Origin: Squalus acanthias
Lineage: Eukaryota
NCBI GenBank assembly: GCA_030390025.1
Contig: CM059448.1
Location: 11,904,001 to 11,968,000 of the forward strand
DNA: 64,000 nucleotides
Direction: 5' to 3'
Made by a program: the position numbers and the translations under genes. Each line of letters starts with the position of its first letter. Position 1 is the stretch's first letter. The notes beneath the pieces were generated by a model that saw only the letters and a program-made list of their open reading frames with translations, made no database searches and had not been told where the DNA came from. This document shows positions 9,071 to 60,005 of the stretch, piece by piece.

Positions 9071-10605
9071 GCACTCACTCAGGAATGTTTGGCATTTCTT
9101 AACCTTGTTTTATAAAGCTGTCAATGTTTCTGTATGGAAGGAACTTTTTTGGGGGGAAAAGCTTTTCACACTTATACAATGGTGTTATGGTTTAAAATGT
9201 TATACAACTTATTGCAGATCATTAAACAGTAAGTGATTGGTTTGAGTTTAGCATTGATAGACATGATTTAGTCAGTATAGGAAGAACTCTACAGTGCACC
9301 TGTCTCGTCGTCCTCCTGATTCCAGACCTCAGATAATTCTATTTTATAATCAGCCCTCAAGGTGTGTATGAACTGGAAGTGTTCAAACATATCCTGGTCA
9401 GAAAGCACTTCTGGTGAGTGGGCTGAAATCAGAAACCATGTGGAAATCCCATCATTCCATTGTGGTTTTTTTTTTTAACAGTACACCAAGAGCTGCATAA
9501 AATGGACTTTTATTAAACTAAGTAGTGGAGTGAATATTGATTGTCATATTTGATCATAAAATTTACTACACAAATATCTAACTACCTTTTTTCAACATTT
9601 TGCAATTGTTTTCCATCAAAAAAAAATCTGCATCATATAGTTCCTCTCCCACCCACTCCAAGCCTCAGATCTAAACTTCAACACAACGCACGTTTAATGA
9701 AGAAATCACACGTGCCCATAAATCTGGTCTAACAACTCCCCGCTTCTCCTGCCCCCAAGTCGCATGATTTGCCCAACTTCCTCTCTGAACACACCTTGCC
9801 CAGCAAACCAGGCAAAATTTGTCTTAAATCTGTCCATGGACAACCATAGGACTACAATTTCTAGGAGCCACTGTGGCTTTTTCTTTTTGGCTGGGAAACT
9901 CCAAGGACTTACCATGTGGTCATTTCCCCAGGCACGTGTGGGAGTTTGGCTTCTGGAGTTCATCCACCTCCTCAACAGAGAAACTCCAAGGAGCCTCTCG
10001 CAAGTGTGCACAGAAGTCTGCCTGTTCTTGTTTTGTTTTTTGCCAACCAGTATCTTTCTCTGTGATCAGCTCCTTCCACATCCCTCTACGTGGCAGTTTG
10101 AACAGTGTAAGAAATAGAGTGGAAAGAGTTCTGCTAAAACTAAGTGGAGAGAGATAAAACAAGTAAGAATGGGGAGAACAAACTGAAAAGAAATAAGGAA
10201 AGAAGCCGAGAGAAAAGATGAGGAAATGCAATGTACGCAGGTGTCTGTTACAAATTCTTGGTTCAGTGGCATCCAGCGTGCCGAAAAGTGGATCTGATTC
10301 CTCTTGCATGCCAGAGTACATTTGCATTGCCCAATATCAACTTGTACAATAATGCAACCCAGGGATGTTTGTATAATAATTATTGTGATCTGAACCAGTC
10401 ATGTGTGTCTTTTGCATATGCCTCTAATCTTTTTGAAGGTGGACTGAGAAACCACCTGATAAGACGAGGCCAGATACAAATAGTTAAGCTGCTCTATATC
10501 ACAGCCAAGGGAACATGCAGAGCAACAGTTAGGAACAGACACACTTAATTCAATCAGGACATGTGTCTTTGCATAATATAACAAAAATAATGAACATGCT
10601 ATGCT

Positions 10606-12470
10606 TCCCACAATCAATGGATCAGATCAAAGCTCTGCAGTCCTGCCACATCCAGTCGTGAATGGTGGTGGACTATTAAACAACTAACTGGAGGAGGCTC
10701 CAAGAATATCCCCATCCTCAATGATGGTGGAGCCCAGCATGTGAGTGCAAAAGACAAGGCTGAAGCGTTTGCAACCAACTTCAGCCAGAAGTGCCGAGTG
10801 GATGATCCATATCGGCCTACTCCTGAGGTCCCCACCATCACAGAAGCCATTCTTCAGCCAATTCGATTCACTCCAAGTGATAGCAAGAAACGGCTGAGCG
10901 CACTGGATACAGCAAAGGCTATGGGCCCCGACAACATCCCGGCTATCGTGCTGAAGACTTGTGCTCCAGAACTAGCCGCGCCTCTAGCCAAGCTGTTCCA
11001 GTACAGCTACAACACTGGCATCTATCCAACAATGTGGAAAACTGCCCAGGTATGTCCTGTCCACAAAAAGCAGGACAAATCCAACCCGGCCAATTAGCGC
11101 CCCATCAGTCTACTCTTAATCATCAGCAAAGTGATGGAAGGTGTCATCGACAGTGCTATCAAGCGGCACTTACTCACCAATGACCTGCTCACTGATGCCC
11201 AGTTTGGGTTCCGCCAAGACCACTCGGCTCCCGACCTCATTACAGCCTTGGTCCAAACATGGACAAAGGAGCTGAATTCCAGAGGTGTGGTGAGAGTGAC
11301 TGCCCTTGACATCAAGGCAGCATTTGACTGAGTCTGGCACCAAGGAGCCCTAGTAAAACTGAAGTCAATGGGAATCGGGGAAACTGCTCCACTGGCTGGA
11401 GTCATACCTAGCACAAAGGAAGATGGTTGTGGTGGTTAAAGATCAATCATCACAGCCCCAGGACATTGCTGCAGGAGTTCCTCAGGGCAGTGTCCTAGGC
11501 CCAACCATCTTCAGCTGCTTCATCAATGACCTTCCCTCCAACATAAGGTCAGAAATGGGAATGTTCACTGATGACTGCACAGTGTTCAGCGCCATTCGCA
11601 ACTCCACAGATAATGAAGCAGTCCATGCCCGCGTGCAACAAGACCTGGACGACGTTCAGGCTTGGGCTGATAAGTGGCAGGTAACATTCGCGCCACAGAA
11701 GTGCCAGGCAATGACTATCTCCAACGAGCAAGAGTCTAACCACCTCCCCTTGACATTCAATGGCATTACCATCACCGAATCCCCCACTATCAACATCCTG
11801 GGGGTCACCATTAACCAGAAACTTAACTGGACCAGCCACATAAATACTGTGGCAACAAGAGCAGGTCAGAGGCTAGGTATTCTGCAGCGAGTGTCTCACC
11901 TCCTGACTCTCCAAAGCCTTTCCACCATCTACAAGGCACAAGTAAGGAGTGTGATGGAATACTCTCCACTTGCCTGGATGAGTGCAGCTGTAACAACACT
12001 CAAGAAGCTCGACACCATCCAGGACAAAGCAGCCCGCTTGATTGGCACCCCATCCATCACCTTAAACATTCACTCCCTCCACCACCAGCGTACCGTGGCT
12101 GCAGTGTGTACCATCTACAAGATGCACTGCAGCAACTCGCCAAGGCTTCTTCGGCAGCACCTCCCAAACCCGCGACCTCTTCCACCTAGAAGGACAGGGG
12201 CAGCAGGCGCACGGGAACACCACCACCTCCAAGTTCCCCTCCAAGTCACACACCATCATGACTTAGAAGTATATCACTGATCCTTCATCGTTGCTGGGTC
12301 AAAATCCTGGAACTCCCTCCCTAACAGCACTGTGGGAGTACCATCACCACACGGACTGCAGCGGTTCAAGAAGGCGGCTCACCACCACCTTCTCAAGGGC
12401 AACTAGGGATGGGCAATAAATGCTGGCATTGCCAGAGACGCCCTGATCCCATGAACGAATAAAATAAAAT
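10606..12470 (+). mobile_element. 5'-truncated CR1-group non-LTR retrotransposon (RT pseudogene)
   Basis: ORF pieces 10741-11097, 11131-11331 and 11423-12280 contain [32 protein letters not shown] and FTDD; in-frame stops and a frameshift; AATAA-type tail. Confidence 0.92.
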
Positions 12471-28479: not shown

Positions 28480-29142
28480 GTAAGATGGTTTTCTGATTCT
28501 GAATTGATTTGGAATGCTTTGGAGTGATTACATAACTTATTGTCTTTCCTTTTTTTAAAAAAAACCCAAAGCTGTAGTTTTGGTCAAGTTAAGTAGTGGA
28601 AGTGATTCTGCAGGGGTGCGAATATTGAACAAAGGTCAGCAGGTCTCGAGCCTACAAATTCTTATCTTGAGAGTTCCTGACTTTGCCTAAACCCAGCAAA
28701 CATAAACCTGGCAGCAGAGCTGTAAAAGTATTTCACGAAGTCATCTGTTTTATTGCAGTAATGTAAATAGTTAAATTTTTCTTCAACTCCCTGGGTGGTT
28801 ATTTGTGTCTCGTCCCACTCCCCAGTGCATGCTTAAATATTATCAATAGTGAGTAATATGTATTAAGAGAATTTCATTCCTGTTTGTGCTCTCCAAATGT
28901 ATACTGTATGCAAAGGATAATAAAGCGGTGAGAAATTCTAGATCTTTTGTTGAAAAATTTGCATTGAAATGAATGGCTTTTTGAGAAGGCAGGCCAAATA
29001 GTTTGTTTGGATAGTTGTTTCGGATAGTTGTATTATTTAGTGAAGAATGAGTAATAGGTTAGTCCAGAGATGGTTGTAAGCATGTGAATATTACAGTAAT
29101 CACGCACTGATATTTAGTCTTTGATTACTTCTGTTTCTCCAG

Positions 29143-29248
29143 GAAACGATTTGAACAGCAGCAAAAGATGATGGAAGAGGAACGGAAGCGCCGACAGTTT
29201 GAAGAGCAAAAGCAGAAGCTACGTCTTCTGAGCAGTGTAAAGCCGAAG
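29143..29248 (+). CDS. SYNRG: Synergin gamma exon 5 (coiled coil)
   Basis: KRFEQQQKMMEEERKRRQFEEQKQKLRLLSSVKPK, near-identical to recalled human sequence; phase 2 to 0. Confidence 0.97.
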
Positions 29249-29496
29249 GTATTCCTCAGCGGCACCATAGATGTGCTTTTGTTACAGGTGGTTCATTTTA
29301 TTTGTTGGCACAGAAAGTCCTCAAGTTTCAGAATAGGCACTTTTTTGGGGTGGGACTCAAGGCTATTTGCTAATAAGTCAAAGCTGCTTATTTTAATACA
29401 ATAGCAAAATACTGTGGATGCTGGAAATCCGAAATAACAACAGAAAATGCTGGAAAAACTCAGCAGGCCAGGCAGCATCTGTGGAGAGAGAAACAG

Positions 29497-29533
29497 AGTT
29501 AACGTTTCAGGTTGAAGACCTTTCGTCAGAACT
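29497..29533 (-). ncRNA. Minimal type-I hammerhead ribozyme motif (antisense)
   Basis: Minus strand reads AGTT-CTGACGA-A-AGGTc ttc aACCT-GAAA-CG-TT-AACT. Confidence 0.7.
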
Positions 29534-29823
29534 GGAAAAAAGCAGGAAATGGAATAGATTTTAAAGCAGGTTATGGGGTGGGGAAATGGGGGTGGGGATG
29601 AAAGAACAAAAGATAGAAAGCAGGAGAGATTGAGAGACATTGAGAGATATTAAGACAACCTGTCACATTACCACCTCCTCTTGTCTTGAATATCTCTTAA
29701 TGTCTCTCAATCTCTCCTGCTTTCTATCCTATCACTGACCTTCCCTTTTGTTCTTTCATCCTCTCCCCCATTTCCCCGCCCCTAAACCTGCTTTAAAATC
29801 TATTCCATTTCCTGCCTTTTTCC

Positions 29824-29860
29824 AGTTCTGATGAAAGGTCTTCGACCTGAAACGTTAACT
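29824..29860 (+). ncRNA. Minimal type-I hammerhead ribozyme motif (sense to SYNRG)
   Basis: AGTT-CTGATGA-A-AGGTC ttc GACCT-GAAA-CG-TT-AACT: catalytic boxes, 5-bp stem II, stem I AGTT/AACT and palindromic AACGTT at stem III. Confidence 0.75.
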
Positions 29861-30164
29861 CTGTTTCTCTCTCCACGGATGCTGCCTGGCCTGCTGAGTT
29901 TTTCCAGCGTTTTCTGTTGTTATTTCTGCTTATTTTAACCTGGATTAACTAATCGGTGAGACTATGTTCTGAATGCCATGTGTAATTTGGGGCTCCTTTC
30001 CTTCAAAAGAAGTCTGTTAGATTGGTTAGAGTTCAGAGAAGAGGGATGTGAATGAAGAGAGACTCTGAACCAAACTTGATTTCCTTGAAGAGAAGAAGAT
30101 TGTTAAGATCTTCAAAAATGAAAGAGAATGGCCTGATGGCTTAACTAGTTTAATCAGTGAATCC

Positions 30165-30480
30165 AGGTCAGGAAGGGGCCAGGTTTTGTACCCAGTCTCT
30201 GCTAACTTAACTGATCTCTGCAGGGGTGATGATAGGGTTGGTACACTTAGCCACAACATTGCTGGGTTAGCAGGTAGAAAATTGGGCAAGGTTCCTAATC
30301 CTGATTAACAATAGCAACCCTGGCTGGAAGTGTGTGTGAATATCGGGCGAGCACAGGATCGAGCTTGGCTGTAATGCTAACCATTGTTATATAGCTTGCA
30401 TCACCCTTTGTCGAAGCTTGCACGCAAATTAATCATTTGGGTGCGTGCTCACGAATAAAGAACCAACAACTTCAAGAGCA
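30165..30480 (+). mobile_element. Degraded tRNA-type SINE (family of 36068-36400)
   Basis: caggaagggg..cccagtctctgctaacttaactgatctc..gttcctaatcctgat. Confidence 0.5.
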
Positions 30481-30511
30481 AAATTAGGAAAAATTGAAAT
30501 TTATAAATAAT

Positions 30512-32924
30512 GGCCTGGATTTTGCAGTCAGCAGCGAACGAACGGCGCTAATTGTTCATTACAATTGCAGTTGACCACAGACTTCCTATGGGCTTTTGCA
30601 CTAGAACCTGCGGTGATTAGAGAGCCTAAACAGCGTGGTACCCTCTACAGGGGATCTAGGACCTGTGTGAACAGGGCAAGCAACTGTGTGTCCTCTTAAC
30701 CAATCAGATTGAAGAATCCTTACTGAGCCTAGTTAATTCAATGCCAAATCATGTACAGAAAGTGAAATAAAGAGGGAGAAAGAAAGATGCGATTTAAGAG
30801 AGAGTTAAAGGAGACGGAAAGAAAAAGTAAAAAAAAAATTAGAATTTTTAAAAAATCTCCAAAAATAATTAAAATTTGAAGGAACGAGACTCCACACTGT
30901 AAAAGTAAATTTTCAGTCCCAGAGCAGTTGTTTGGCAGTAATTAAGACTTATCACACCGTTAAAAGTTCACTTGCACTTGAATGGACAAGCCCTAACTTT
31001 ATCTGGCATGTTTAGTGGGTATCTAGTGGGTAAGTACCGCAACTTAGAAAACATAGAAAAATAGGAGCAGGAGTAGGCCATTCGGCCCTTCGAGCCTGCT
31101 CCACCATTCAATATGATCATGGCTGATCCTCTATCTCAATATCATATTCCCGCGCTCTCCCCATACCCCTTGATGCCTTTTGTGTCTAGAAATCTATCTA
31201 TCTCTTTCTTAAATATATTCAGTGACTTGGCCTCCACAGCCTTCTGTGGTAGAGAATTCCACAGGTTCACCACCCTCTGAGTTAAGAAATTTCTCCTCAT
31301 CTCAGTCCTAAATGTCCTACCCCATATCCTGAGACTGTGACCCCTCGTTCTAGACCCCCCAGCCAGGGGAAACATCCTCCCTGCACCCAGTCTGTCTAGC
31401 CCTGTCAGAATTTTATGTTTCAATGAGATCCCCTCTCATTCTTCTAAACTTTAGTGAATACAGGCCTAGTCGAACCAATCTCTCCTCATACGACAGTCCT
31501 GCCATCCCAGGAATCAGTCTGGTGAACCTTCGCTGCACTCCCTCTATGGCAAGTATATCCTTTCTTAGGTAAGGAGACCAAAACTGCGCACACTACTCCA
31601 GGTGTGGTCTCACCAAGGCCCTGTACAACTGTAGTAAGACATCCTTGCTCCTGTACTCAAATCCTCTTGCAATGAAGGCCAACATACCATTTGCCTTCCT
31701 AACTGCTTGCTGCACCTGCATGTTTGCTTTCAGTGACTGGTGTACAAGGACACCCAGGTCCTTTTGTACATCAGCATTTCCCAATCTAGCACCATTTAAA
31801 TAATACTCTACCTTTCTGTTTTTCCTACTGAAGTGGATAACTTCACGTTTATCCACGTTATACTGCATCTGCCATGTATTTGCCCACTCACTCAATTTGT
31901 CTAAATCGCCTTGAAGCCTCTTTGCATCCTCCTCACAACTCACAATCCCACCTAGTTTTGTGTCGTCAGCAAACTTGGAAATATTACATTTGGTTCCCTC
32001 ATTCAAATCATTGATATATATTGTGAATAGCTGGGGCCCAAGCACTGATCCCTGCGGTACCCCACTAGTCACCGCCTGCCACCCTGAAAAAGACCCATTT
32101 ATTCCTACACTCTGTTTCCTGTCTGTTAACCAATTTTCAATCCATGCCAGTATATTACCTCCAATCCTATGTGCTTTAATTTTGCACACTGACCTCTTAT
32201 GTGGGACTTTATCAAAGGCCTTCTGAAAATCCAAATACACCACATCCACTGGTTCTCCCTTATCTATTCTACCAGTTACATCCTCAAAAAAACTCCAGTA
32301 GGTTTGTCAAACACGATTTCCTTTTCATAAATCCATGTTGACTTTGTCTAATCCCGTTGATATATTTTCTAAGTGTCCCGTTATCACATCCTTTATAATA
32401 GACTCTAGCATTTTCCCTACTACTGATGTTAGGCTAAACGGTCTGTAGTTCCCGGTTTTCTCTCTCCCTCCTTTTTTAAATAGTGGGGTTACATTTGCCA
32501 CCCTCCAATCTGCTGGAACTGTTCCATAATCTATAGAATTTTGGAAGATGACAACCAATGCATCCATATGGCTACCTCTTTTAGTACTCTGGGATGCAGA
32601 TTATCAGGCCCTGGGGATTTATCAGCTTTCAGTCCCATTAATTTCTCCAGCACTTTTTTTACCAATACTAATTTCCTTTAATTCCTCCTTCTCCCTAGCC
32701 CCTTGGTTCCCTCGCATTTCTTCAAACTTCATATCCTTTATGTGTTTGAATGCCGAGCCACTTGGCGCGATACTGTTCTAGCGAAGCTTCTAGAGGAGCA
32801 GGGCAACTCGGACAGCAATATGCAACTGCTCATGTGCCGTTGTCGGAAGTTGCTGTCCGATTTACTCCTGAATAACGGTGAGCACTGATATCCTCACCGT
32901 TATTTTTACCGCAAAATCTGGGTC
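30512..32924. mobile_element. PIF/Harbinger-like non-autonomous element, split by a CR1
   Basis: Imperfect TIR GGCCTGGATTTTGCAGT / ACCGCAAAATCTGGGTC; 3-bp AAT duplication at 30509-30511 and 32925-32927. Confidence 0.7.
31046..32724 (-). mobile_element. 5'-truncated CR1 LINE (RT pseudogene)
   Basis: [30 protein letters not shown] and RRNFLTQRVVNLWNSLP; broken frames; AACTT on both flanks. Confidence 0.95.
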
Positions 32925-33155
32925 AATGTAGATATAAGCAGGTTTTTAACGAAGACTGTGGTTCCAAAGTTAGAGTACATGCATACAGAATTAACGAGCT
33001 AATTTTTGATAATTGAGTTTTGCACAAATTAGAAGATTTTATTTTCACACTGAATAGTGCATATGTTCAGCAGATACCCAACAAAACCAATTAATGCTGT
33101 CTTCATCAATTACTTTTTAAAAGAAAACTTGGATGGCTATCTTTTCCAGAACAGA

Positions 33156-33686
33156 GTTCTGAGGAAGGATGTTCTTGCCATGGAAGGAGTTCAGCGAAGA
33201 TTCACAAGGCTGATACCTGGGATGGCAGGAATGACATATGAGGAGAGATTGGGTCGATTGGGCTTATACTCACTGGAGTATAGAAGAATGAGAGGGGATC
33301 TCATCGAAACATAAAATATTCTGACAGGTCTGGACAACCTAGATGCAGGAAGAATGTTCCTGATGGTCGGAGAGTCCAGAACCAGGGGTCATAATCTAAG
33401 GATAAGGGGTAAGCCATTTAGGACAGAAATGAGGAGGAATTTCTTCACCCAGAGAGTGGTGAACCTGTGGAATTCTCTACCACAGAAGGTAGTTGAGGCC
33501 AAGTCATTAAATATATTCAAGAATGAGTTAGATATATTTCTTAAAGCTAAAGGTATCAAGGGATATGGGGAGAAGGCAGGTACAGGGTACTGAGTTTGGA
33601 TGATCAGCCATGATCTCATTGAATGGCGGAGCAGGCTCGAGGGGCCGACTGGCCTACTCCTGCTCCTATCTTCTATGTGTCTATGC
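33156..33686 (+). mobile_element. CR1 LINE 3' fragment
   Basis: LRKDVLAMEGVQRRFTRLIPG...RRNFFTQRVVNLWNSLP, followed by the CR1 3' UTR and ctatg tail. Confidence 0.92.
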
Positions 33687-33880
33687 TAAGGTTATAAGGA
33701 TAGGCAGATTATCTAATTGGCACAAAACACAGTGGATTTTGTGTTTATGGAACCATGGATAAGTGTAGAATGCAACTGGTCGGAGTTGAATAGTGTATGT
33801 TGTAAAGTTGGATTAATAAATAGCCTGAGGTGCTTTTTTTTCCTAATGAGCTTTGTGAGTTGGTGGAGAGATATTGGAGG

Positions 33881-34425
33881 TATGAACATAAGGGCAATGA
33901 CGGACAGATAAAGAGCCTTTGGTCCATCCAACCTGTCCCACACAAATATGATGCCTCGTGTATTACAATATATGCACTCTCCACCCCATCCAAAGCCATG
34001 TGATCTCCTTGGTATGGCAAACAAACTAGATAAAAACCCAGGCCAATTTGGGGGGGAAAAAATCTGGGAAATTCCTCTCCGACCCATCTAGGCGATCGAA
34101 ACTAGTCCAGGAGATCACTCTGGCTCTGAATTTCCTGAAGTACCTACCTTCTGTAAGAGGTGATGTCCGCCCCAACCAGAAACCGGGTCCAGCTCTCTCA
34201 CTTGAAGGAATTCAGTGAATCGTCGTCCACCGCACGAGACGGCAGCCTGTTCCAGAGGTCCACTATTCTCTGGGAAAAGAACCACCTCCTGACACCTAAC
34301 CTAGATCTGGCCTTACACAACTGAAAATCATGACCCCAGTCCTCCCTAATCTATTTAATTGGAACAAACTGTCAACTGGAACACAATCTGTTCCCTTCGT
34401 CATCTTATAAACCTCAATCAGATCC
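33881..34425 (-). mobile_element. CR1-type LINE 3' fragment (second subfamily, long 3' UTR)
   Basis: Minus strand reads RRWFFSQRIVDLWNRLP; the UTR is shared with 60471-60760. Confidence 0.75.
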
Positions 34426-35166
34426 TTTGTACCCTTGACTTGATTCACCAGCCAGGCGATTGGATGAATCCATGATGAGAGAAATTGTACATAATTTTTA
34501 AAGGATTGTGATTTTATATTTGTTTTGTTTTATATACTTTTGAGGTTATTTAAATGCTTCTTGACTTTCCCTGTTATGCTGGTCTCTCTACTCTGCATTG
34601 TCTAATCCTTGGTGGGCAAGCTTCTCTGCCAGTGAAGCTATGAAATCAGCTGCTGAGAGGTGTGAGAGAACAGCCCTAACTAATCTTCCTGTCTCTGTGG
34701 GGACACCTGCTTACCACCCCTCCACACTGGCATGGCTGAAAGTAGGTGCTTTTTTAACTTCACAAAATAGAGGAAAATACGAGTAGCTTTCCTTCCCCAC
34801 CCCTTGTACTGTTAAGGAAGAGGTTAATCTGTTTCCAGGCCTCTACAGTTTACCTGGCAGGTGCAGATGTGGGTTGCCTCATCCTTGTGTGTTTTTTTTT
34901 CTGTTGTTACACCCTCTCCCTCTGGGAAAGTGTTTCGCATCTGCTCATTTTCTGTCAGAACATAGGCAAAAAAAAAAACTAGAACTGCAGGGGTATAAAT
35001 AATAGAAGCACATTTTATATGAAGTGCTTTCATTTTTTTTTCCTCTTTAATTAGGATAAGTGTAATGGCATTTCTCTTTCAAAAACAAACCAGCTCCTAG
35101 CTATAATATCACTTCTTCATGTTATTTAATATTAATTCACTGGTTTCTGTCGCATTCTGGTTTCAG

Positions 35167-37786: not shown

Positions 37787-39190
37787 TTTAAGAAGGGGGA
37801 TAGAACATGTCCAGGGAATTATAGACCAGTCAGCTTAACATCGGTGGTAGGAAAAATAATGGAATCCCTACTAAAGGAGAAAATAGAAGAACATCTAGAA
37901 ACCAAAAACATAGTAATGAATAGTTAGCATGGATTTCAAAAGGGAAAGTCTTGCTTGACCAACCTCATTGAATTTTTTGAAGGGGTAACAGAGAGAGTAG
38001 ACAATGGTAATGCAGTAGATGTAATTTATCTAGATTTTCAAAAGGCCTTTGATAAAGTACCCCATAATAGACTGATGAACAAGGTCAGAGAATGCGAAGT
38101 CATGGGGCAAGTAGCAGAATGGATAGCTAGCTGGCTTCAGGACAGAAAGCAGAGAGTAGGGGTAAAAGGTAGCTTATTCACAGTGGCAGAAGGAGGGTAG
38201 TGGTGTTCCACAAGGATCAGTGCTGGGACCACTGTTGTTCACAATTTATATTAACGATTTAGATTTTGGAATCAAAAACACAATTTCTAAATTTGCGGAT
38301 GACACCAAATTAGGGGGGATAGTCAATACTGAGGAGGACTGCAACAAATTACTGGAGGACATTAATAAACTTGCAGAATAGGCATGTAATTGGCAAATGA
38401 AGTTCAACACAGATATTACATTTTGGTAGGAAGAATTATTACTTGGAGGGTGCGAGTCTAGGTGGGGTAGACGAACAAAGGGATCTCTGAGTACAAATAC
38501 ACAAATCACTAAAAGTTGTGACACAGGTTAGCAAGGCCATAAAAAAAAGCAAACCAAGCACTAGGGTTTATTTCTAGAGGTATAGAATTAAAAAGTAGGG
38601 AAGTTATGCTAAACCTGTATCGAACCTTGGTTAGATCACACTTTGAGTACTGTGAACAGTTCTGGTCGCCATATTAAAAAAAGGATATAGAGGCACTGGA
38701 GAGTGTGCAGAGAAGATTTACAAGGATAATACCAGAAATGCGAGGGTATACATATCGGGAAAGGATGAACAGGCTGGGTCTCTTTACTGTTGGAAAAAAG
38801 AAGGCTGAGGGGTGTCCTAATAGAGGTCTTTAAAATTATGATAGGTTTTGATAGAGTGGATACAGAGAGAATGTTTCCACTTGTGGGGAAGAGCATGACT
38901 AGAGGCCATCAATATAAGATAATCACCAAGAAATCCAATAGGGAATTCAGAAGAAACTTCTTTACCCAGAGAGTGGTGAGAATGTGGAACTCGCTACCAC
39001 AGGGAGTGGTTGAAGTGAATAGTATAGATGCATTTAAGGGGAGGCTAGACAAGCATATGAGAGAGAACGGAATAGAAGGTTATGCTGATAGATTTAGATG
39101 AGGAAAGACGGGAGGAGGCTCGAGTGGGATAAATGCCGGACTGGTTGGGCCGAATGGCCTGTTTCTGTGCCGTATATCCTATGTAACTCA
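37787..39190 (+). mobile_element. 5'-truncated CR1 LINE (RT pseudogene)
   Basis: [41 protein letters not shown] and RRNFFTQRVVRMWNSLP; many frameshifts. Confidence 0.93.
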
Positions 39191-51942: not shown

Positions 51943-52259
51943 GTGAGTGGATGCTGAGTAGTGTGTATAACCACCCATGCATACAATAGCTGTGGCCAGT
52001 AGAGTACTTTCACATTCCTTGTATGAAAGGCATAGTGTATCCCAAAGAGCTAGAAATGATCGTGCATTTAACACATGTAGACTTGCTGGTTACTCTACAA
52101 ATCCTGTCAGTAGCAATGCTTTCCTGAGGTCATGCATCTCCAAATTTGCTTTCAAGTCGGCCCAGAGTTGAGACCACCATTGGCATTCAATGGAGATGAT
52201 TCGGGATGCTCCCTGTCATTGGTGCAGTGGCTAAGCAGCAAAGAGACACTGACCTGGTG

Positions 52260-52396
52260 CAAAAGCAAAATACTGCGGATACTGGAAATCTGAAATAAAA
52301 ACAGAAAATGCTGGACATACTCAGCAGGTCAGGCAACATCTGTAGAGAGAGAAACAGAGTTAACGTTTCAGGTTGATGTCCTTTTGTCAGAACTGG
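52260..52396 (-). mobile_element. Solo Penelope pLTR 3' end with mutated hammerhead
   Basis: Highly similar to 29399-29535; minus-strand core reads CTGACAA rather than CTGANGA. Confidence 0.85.
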
Positions 52397-52419
52397 TGGG
52401 TCACCAGGGGAAAAAAAAA

Positions 52420-59419: not shown

Positions 59420-60005
59420 TCATGCTTCAGTTATACAGGGCATTAGTGAGACCACATCTGGAGTACTGTGTACAGTATTGGTCTCCTTATTTAAGGAAGG
59501 ATGTAAATGCGTTGGAAGCAGTTCAGAGAAGGTTTACTAGACTAATACCTGGAATGGGCGGGTTGTCTTATGAGGAAAGGTTGGACAGGCTAGGCTTGTA
59601 TACACTGGAGTTTAGAAGAGTAAGAGGTGACTTGATTGAAACATATAAGATCCTGAGGGGTCTTGACAGGGTGGATGTGGAGAGGATGTTTCCTCTTGTG
59701 GGAGAATCTAGAACTAGGGGTCAGTGTTTAAAAATAAGGGGTCGCCCATTTAAGACCAAGATGAGGAGAATTTTTTTTTCCACAGAGGGTCGTGAGTCTT
59801 TGGAACTCTCTTCAGAGGGTGGTAGAAGCAGAGTCTTTGAATATTTTTAAGGCAGAGGTAGATAGATTCTTGATGAGCAAGGGGGTGAAAGGTTATCGGG
59901 GGTAGGCGGGAATGTGGAGTAATCAGATCAGCCATGATCTTATTGAATGGCGGAGCAGGCTCGAGGGGCCGAGTGGCCTACTCCTGCTCCTAATTCGTAT
60001 GTAAC
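59420..60005 (+). mobile_element. CR1 LINE 3' fragment
   Basis: LQLYRALVRPHLEYCVQYWSPYLRKDVNALEAVQRRFTRLIPG, followed by the CR1 3' UTR. Confidence 0.93.

Follow-up and report, generated by a model that had tools for sequence, protein, structure and literature searches.

Craig et al. (PMC8557442) described heavy 5' truncation in Penelope-like elements (PLEs), an adjacent inverted copy that is itself 5'-truncated, and a tail of 30-40 bp that is often one-ended; the origin of the inverted structures is presented there as unresolved. Inverted pLTRs, a 31-bp tail and target-site duplications (TSDs) of 8-10 bp were reported by Arkhipova et al. (PMC3846280). The minimal hammerhead was defined by Cervera and de la Pena by a base left unpaired ahead of helix II and by helix III being palindromic; opposite-strand pairs of such motifs, 100-700 bp apart, were already reported there in 2014, and the PLE motifs assayed in vitro gave no cleavage as monomers and low cleavage as dimers (PMC4209133). 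For an anole PLE, Frangieh et al. (PMC11167929) reported a protein with cutting and extending activity on both strands, reverse transcription that starts at two internal sites bounding the tail, a preference for AT-rich targets with ATT, and the use of uncleaved RNA, with no RNA-seq ends at the hammerhead cut site. Retrozymes are described as tandem repeats on one strand, every unit of which carries a hammerhead (PMC7229834; 10.64898/2026.07.22.740005). In lizard, Penelope repeats are reported to be subject to massive RNA editing, and hyper-edited transcripts are reported from elephant shark (PMC5625713); an expansion of PLEs in whale shark introns has been described (10.1101/443036).

The locus compared here with these systems lies within a stretch of 64,000 nucleotides from Squalus acanthias, referred to below as the window. 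The host gene was identified as SYNRG (synergin gamma) on the + strand; the best protein match was 95%, to sawshark SYNRG, and tblastn with four shark SYNRG proteins recovered fifteen coding segments in order. Intron 5 spans 29249-35166 (5918 nt) and the insert begins 148 nt after its donor, in agreement with the original prediction, which had placed it about 150 nt downstream of exon 5. The exon concerned was delimited as follows.

29143..29248, + strand: fifth coding exon of SYNRG, with the donor AAG/GTATTC at 29249 (tblastn, splice contexts and an in-frame join of exons 4, 5 and 6)

The exon 5 donor agrees with the consensus at 6 of 9 positions and lies 135 nt from the insertion, and a hairpin in its vicinity could affect donor use. 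Broken reverse-transcriptase fragments, which we take to be LINE-type, were also seen in the window at 10594-12280 (+), 31593-32600 (-) and 37928-38200 (+); Pfam RVT_1 was present in five of the 67 ORFs scanned, in one of them under the cut-off.

The insert occupies 29397-29925 (529 bp) between two copies of the 13-bp sequence CTGCTTATTTTAA, at 29384-29396 and 29926-29938. This sequence had no other occurrence in the 64 kb, and a 13-bp match was reached by none of 3000 random junction pairs of equal spacing, the best being 12, seen once. It includes ATT, and the target site is AT-rich. The two inverted arms, 29432-29658 and 29681-29925, were identical at 216 of 227 aligned bases and differed by 11 substitutions, a 17-nt indel (29729-29745, present in the right arm only) and a 1-nt indel, with a spacer of 22 nt between them. 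The left arm alone is extended by a tail of 35 nt that has no right-arm counterpart. On the hammerhead strand the 3' ends of both arms face outward, so that the copies stand head-to-head. These results bore out the original prediction of a 529-bp insert in a perfect 13-bp duplication, with reverse-complementary arms, a 22-nt spacer and a bulge of about 17 nt; the extra nucleotides on the left arm only, which it had put at about 34, were counted as 35, and its arm limits of 29431 and 29926 are accounted for by G29431, which is also complementary to C29926, the first base of the TSD. The parts of the insert were assigned as follows.

29384..29396, no strand: left copy of the TSD, 13 bp (direct repeat, with random-pair control)
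29397..29431, - strand: PLE "tail", 35 nt, a 3' extension on the hammerhead strand that is shared with a third copy of the repeat (tails are described in PMC8557442 and PMC11167929)
29432..29658, - strand: left arm, a 5'-truncated pLTR-type copy, antisense to SYNRG (arm alignment)
29659..29680, + strand: unpaired spacer, 22 nt, forming the hairpin loop; the 5' continuation of the right arm by strand composition
29681..29925, + strand: right arm, a 5'-truncated pLTR-type copy, sense to SYNRG, without a tail and with the bulge 29729-29745
29926..29938, no strand: right copy of the TSD, 13 bp (direct repeat)

A minimal-hammerhead descriptor was scanned over both strands of the window, with 100 dinucleotide shuffles as the control. 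Exactly two matches were found, with core starts at 29828 (+) and 29529 (-), one in each arm. The shuffles gave a mean of 0.03 matches; three of the 100 contained one match and none contained two. The call of a CTGANGA-A-stemII-GAAA-CG-TT motif in each arm was thereby upheld, and the predicted cut after 29856 falls at the correct position.

29497..29533, - strand: left-arm minimal hammerhead, core CUGACGA, 4-bp stem II, predicted cut between 29501 and 29500
29824..29860, + strand: right-arm minimal hammerhead, AGUU/CUGAUGA/unpaired A/5-bp stem II/GAAA-CG-UU/AACU, predicted cut after 29856

In both arms the core elements CUGANGA, GAAA and UH are present together with helices I and II, as are an extra unpaired A between positions 9 and 10.1 and a palindromic CG at 15.2-16.2 without a stem III loop. 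In the left arm, stem II consists of 4 bp capped by a 5-nt loop; in the right arm, of 5 bp capped by a 3-nt loop. The metazoan PLE motifs described in PMC4209133 are likewise type I, with a full core, an unpaired base between 9 and 10.1, no stem III loop, a palindromic CG, a 4-bp helix I and opposite-strand pairs. The insert departs from them in two respects. Helix II is 4-5 bp here, compared to 7-8 bp in the Schistosoma families described in that paper, and pair 10.1-11.1 is A-U in all three copies of the repeat in the window, in contrast to the G-C of the metazoan PLE motifs in the same source; this G-C pair is highly conserved, yet lies outside the published descriptor for minimal hammerheads. 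There was no shark entry in two supplementary files of that paper. Because it is antisense, the left-arm motif is not a ribozyme in the SYNRG transcript. The Rfam search for a hammerhead that the original prediction had suggested was run and was negative: no hammerhead family reached the gathering threshold in the window, and none was among the 32 matches at E<=10 in 29000-30300. Around the insert, Rfam gave only sub-threshold miRNA and snoRNA matches, which are attributable to the hairpin.

A third copy of the repeat, missed by the original prediction, was found as a solo copy in a later SYNRG intron.

52260..52396, - strand: third copy, solo, with the tail present, the hammerhead broken and a possible 6-bp TSD

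This copy is antisense to SYNRG and about 90% identical. Its hammerhead carries a G8 to A change and a stem II mismatch and fails the descriptor. Its tail is 33 nt long and ends at the tail position of the left arm; the distance from the predicted cut site to the 3' end is 102 nt in the third copy, 104 nt in the left arm and 69 nt in the right arm. All three copies span an uncut hammerhead cleavage site. The expectation, set out with the original prediction, that the core would be better conserved than its flanks tended to be contradicted, in a comparison of low power: when the left arm was set against the third copy, differences fell at 3 of 37 hammerhead positions (one of them the catalytic G8) and at 10 of 100 positions outside (Fisher p = 1.0). 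The possible TSD is the 6-bp CTGGTG with a 4-nt microhomology, and a 6-bp repeat was reached in 100 of 3000 random pairs; the breakpoint can be explained by microhomology alone. In this region (52254-52410) the possible TSD is followed by a short inverted repeat of the hexamer and by a (CA)n run, and the 5' end of the copy falls inside a CCAG just ahead of the hammerhead core, at the position of a candidate splice acceptor considered below.

No additional copy in the window was detected by an nhmmer search with a profile of the three copies, the next match having an E of 0.55, and two exact-pattern scans for stray copies in bacterial and archaeal genomes returned 0 and 0. The repeat belongs to an interspersed family, since seven of nine phmmer matches were spurious translations through diverged copies of it elsewhere; the other two were repetitive proteins. 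Predicted-protein sets thus hold spurious ORFs read through this repeat. Some of these peptides cease to match at the end without a tail and others run on across the tail, a pattern that mirrors the two 3' ends.

In line with the statement in the original prediction that there is no ORF, no coding function was found in the insert, which does contain stop-free frames of up to 118 aa. These frames gave no Pfam match. One reading frame of the repeat, searched as a protein, gave nine candidates, none at E<=10, and inspection of the nine phmmer matches showed no PLE ORF among them. An autonomous EN+ PLE (Penelope/Poseidon or Neptune) would show an ORF with RT and GIY-YIG; none lies within the insert, and GIY-YIG was absent from the 67 of 152 window ORFs that were scanned. 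A stop-free frame runs through the hammerhead and tail in all three copies and was considered as the start of a PLE ORF. This candidate was rejected, as a second frame is also open on what is a stop-poor strand and the protein searches gave no PLE protein.

Judged by architecture alone, the insert is a probable 5'-truncated inverted-pLTR Penelope-like insertion, and it was filed as truncated pLTR-type, not autonomous. The copies are head-to-head, the tail is at one end, a TSD is present and the hammerhead lies near the 3' end. The Penelope-like origin that had been proposed for it is supported by the inverted 5'-truncated copy, tail, TSD and minimal hammerhead, set against the accounts in PMC8557442, PMC3846280 and PMC4209133. 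Head-to-head truncated copies, a tail, a TSD and a pLTR hammerhead are shared with D. virilis Penelope and with Adineta vaga Pen2/Pen2a, as these are described in PMC8557442 and PMC3846280. Unlike those insertions, the insert has no ORF and no direct pLTR pair, and its junction holds a unique 22-nt spacer where the Penelope and Pen2 junctions in the same two papers show a palindrome or overlap; its TSD is 13 bp, compared to 8-10 bp in the A. vaga examples (PMC3846280). Anolis Poseidon PAc (PMC11167929) shares with it two 3' ends past the hammerhead that bound the tail, an uncleaved template and an AT-rich target with ATT. The PAc ORF is reported to begin within the hammerhead, whereas no ORF could be linked to the repeat studied here.

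The insert is very probably a dead, ORF-less product of a Penelope-like element, its hammerhead being carried along as a passenger and playing no part in SYNRG regulation. Two copies of the 3' end of the element, both 5'-truncated and each with its pLTR and minimal hammerhead, would have been joined head-to-head in a 13-nt staggered cut. The PLE protein would nick both strands to leave 13-nt 3' overhangs, each 3'-OH would prime reverse transcription at one of two internal start sites, with or without the tail, and the two short cDNAs would be joined through their truncated ends. The junctions fit a staggered cut at which priming occurred twice, independently; this is the simplest reading, a two-primer route that we infer from one locus. 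The spacer speaks to the polarity of the join: on the + strand it holds 5 purines in 22 positions, against a purine fraction of 0.71-0.77 in the left-arm orientation (binomial p = 2e-6), and by this right-arm strand composition it is a continuation of the right arm. The left arm, for its part, runs on into the tail and not into copied flank. Dating of the insertion by arm divergence was set aside, since CpG changes dominate and the arms may derive from different templates. A literature search for Penelope together with twin priming, which covered titles and the start of abstracts and had most subscription papers outside its scope, gave no paper on PLEs, and we make no claim that the idea of two-ended priming is unpublished.

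The same PLE origin could have been reached through a self-primed fold-back intermediate formed before integration, with the tail on one side trimmed during resolution. For head-to-head PLE junctions, self-priming has been put forward (PMC3846280), as has resolution by the endonuclease for the tail (PMC8557442), and the 10-nt tandem repeat (about three copies) that both arms carry near the centre, at 29624-29655 and 29689-29716, is consistent with a single template. The junction, however, has no palindrome and holds the 22-nt unique spacer in its place, and the target-primed version of this route fails from both ends. A cDNA folding back from the left should leave a loop of left-arm polarity, which the spacer does not have (p = 2e-6), and a cDNA folding back from the right would carry the copy into flank sequence instead of the tail; the right-arm character of the spacer and the continuation of the left arm into the tail therefore rule out fold-back of a target-primed cDNA at either end. 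The fold-back route as a whole appears rather unlikely, though it is the most credible of the alternatives to two-ended priming. Movement of the entire 529-bp structure as a self-mobilising, non-autonomous unit, whether a retrozyme or a MITE-like hairpin, is very unlikely. Such a unit would be short, non-coding, flanked by a TSD and equipped with hammerheads, as the insert is, and retrozymes are reported to derive from PLE pLTRs and to occur in one sampled chondrichthyan (10.64898/2026.07.22.740005). Animal non-LTR retrozymes resemble it further in being type I and PLE-related, but they consist of tandem units that are cut into monomers and circles (PMC7229834; 10.64898/2026.07.22.740005), while the two copies in the insert are inverted, each strand has a single motif and same-strand tandem units are absent, so the designation "retrozyme-like unit" in the original prediction was not supported when compared with the same-strand repeats of PMC7229834. 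The insert also does not end at the cleavage sites, its two termini do not form an inverted repeat, and elsewhere in the window the repeat occurs only once, as a single arm. A MITE or other TIR DNA transposon was rejected because there are no TIRs beside the TSD, the left terminus being the unique tail. Inverted duplications are a known read and assembly artefact, and a fold-back chimera would produce one; here the arms differ by 11 substitutions and two indels, the 13-bp TSD is clean and the tail matches an independent copy, which leaves the chance of an artefact close to negligible.

The original prediction had gone further and suggested a folding-dependent self-cleavage switch. On such a reading the sense hammerhead would cleave SYNRG pre-mRNA after 29856 once folding, proteins or editing had freed the motif. 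The premise of the original prediction, that one hammerhead is in the SYNRG sense and that the opposite arm can base-pair over it, was borne out by the folding model: at equilibrium the right-arm motif was paired with the left arm with a probability of at least 0.997 at every position. In the right arm the core is intact and stem II has 5 bp, the hammerhead of an anole PLE is reported to be active with the PLE protein (PMC11167929), and conserved intronic hammerheads are known in amniotes (PMC6155905). These RECK-type motifs share with the insert a sense type I motif in an intron; as described in PMC6155905 they are conserved across species and canonical-like, in contrast to a minimal motif that lies in a repeat and is buried in its own antisense copy. 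The accessible fold, cleaving as a monomer, that marks the RECK type was not found here, as there is no stem III loop and the motif is paired with the antisense arm. Without that loop a monomer cannot close, and the window provides no same-sense partner, its two remaining copies being antisense; used as a substrate strand, the antisense arm gave only -2.8 kcal/mol. Freeing the 37-nt motif from the hairpin would cost 68.5 kcal/mol, and the blocking arm is transcribed first. Folds of the growing transcript had every emerged hammerhead base paired with the left arm (7/7, 33/33 and 37/37), and the right-arm motif alone is also predicted to fold otherwise. The modelled active double hammerhead reached -10.9 kcal/mol, compared to -23.1 kcal/mol for the best dimer fold, which is inactive, a difference of 12 kcal/mol. 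All these energies are nearest-neighbour estimates that leave out tertiary contacts and proteins, although the margin is wide. Activity reported in the literature points the same way: minimal hammerhead monomers were inactive and dimers weak in vitro (PMC4209133), and eight of nine Xenopus retrozyme dimers showed no cleavage (10.64898/2026.07.22.740005). Editing that opened the stem would be expected to strike core adenosines too. With no same-sense partner, the blocking arm made first, 68.5 against -10.9 kcal/mol and weak published cleavage, the proposed switch was not supported and is extremely unlikely. A regulatory interpretation is unlikely, and the insert is most likely ordinary transposon debris, not a regulatory switch.

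A different effect on the transcript might come from splicing. A candidate acceptor overlaps the start of the right-arm hammerhead.

29800..29825, + strand: candidate 3' splice site, a polypyrimidine tract and CAG ahead of the hammerhead core, paired in the hairpin (18/20 pyrimidines)

According to PMC4209133, an intron of D. virilis Penelope has its 3' end at the position matching this candidate, and the function of that intron is treated in PMC2377424. On one reading, the sense arm may have brought in a PLE 3' splice site that the antisense arm buries, so that the insertion was tolerated, with partial opening of the hairpin possibly producing a poison exon at a low level or in a regulated manner. 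The CAG at 29823-29825 is preceded by 18 pyrimidines in 20 positions, above all of the 11 correctly placed SYNRG acceptors (8-17); it ties for first among 183 YAG in the intron and is one of 6 of 2070 in the window. AG is absent from 29655 to 29823, a stretch of about 170 nt leading up to the candidate acceptor. Use of the acceptor at 29825 with a GT at 29956 would give a 130-nt pseudo-exon that reads F-stop after exon 5, the stop being the second codon. The mean pairing probability of the acceptor in the hairpin was 0.95, and the G-U bias of the SYNRG-sense hairpin described below is in line with this proposal. A pyrimidine count is crude, however, and the repeat is rich in pyrimidines all along the acceptor strand; the candidate donor, which agrees with the consensus at 6 of 9 positions, is located outside the element, and masking would arise as a passive by-product, which is no evidence of function. 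Exon 5 was joined directly to exon 6 in all 117 readable SYNRG proteins (of 120), which come from other species and in which a poison exon would not show. We regard masking of a splice site in this manner as improbable. Still further from likely is that the inverted arm serves as a useful safety catch over both the splice site and the hammerhead, its loosening leading to the 130-nt stop exon or to a cut in intron 5; slow elongation, helicases, ADAR or germ-line PLE protein would be the candidate agents of loosening. A branch-point-like CTGAC was noted at 29735, inside the unpaired 17-nt bulge.

For the passenger hammerhead favoured here, the hairpin itself would be the main consequence in RNA. 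The arms would form a hairpin of about 227 bp during SYNRG transcription and so sequester the lone sense hammerhead. The predicted fold of 29384-29938 had an energy of -413.6 kcal/mol in the SYNRG sense (z -36.7; none of 100 shuffles was equally stable), compared to -391.7 kcal/mol in the antisense. Hyper-editing by ADAR of the near-perfect 227-bp stem is probably the likeliest RNA-level effect, and the edited intronic dsRNA would then be removed with the intron. The Xenopus Harbinger and lizard Penelope palindromes of PMC5625713 are, like the insert, long near-perfect dsRNAs with a short loop in pre-mRNA. Such structures are not unusual in this intron, as three related repeat 3' ends were seen in the window at 31051-31568, 33159-33678 and 59425-59995, and the first two are inverted within intron 5 (82.5% over 521 bp), making them a second candidate dsRNA there. 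Five of the 11 arm differences are at CpG sites, and all five read U-G in the SYNRG-sense hairpin. Seven of eight arm transitions gave G-U and not A-C, compared to 176 of 368 in 13 other inverted pairs in the window (Fisher p = 0.033, a post hoc comparison of pairs that are not independent). This bias hints weakly that the hairpin has been maintained in the SYNRG sense; the same pattern would result from mutation with a strand bias in transcribed DNA.

The locus itself is probably unimportant, being one of many intronic PLE fragments in sharks. Its value is as a clean specimen for the origin of inverted PLE structures, since both junctions, the tail asymmetry and the spacer polarity can be read, and it agrees with two-ended priming by a protein active in cutting and extension on both strands. 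If the inverted arm does mask a splice site, an orientation filter acting on genic PLE insertions would be accounted for, and cartilaginous fishes would have a further source of poison exons and ADAR substrates. If it acts as a safety catch, inverted PLE insertions would be the surviving form of sense-oriented PLE ends in shark introns and would constitute a genome-wide class of self-masking poison exons.
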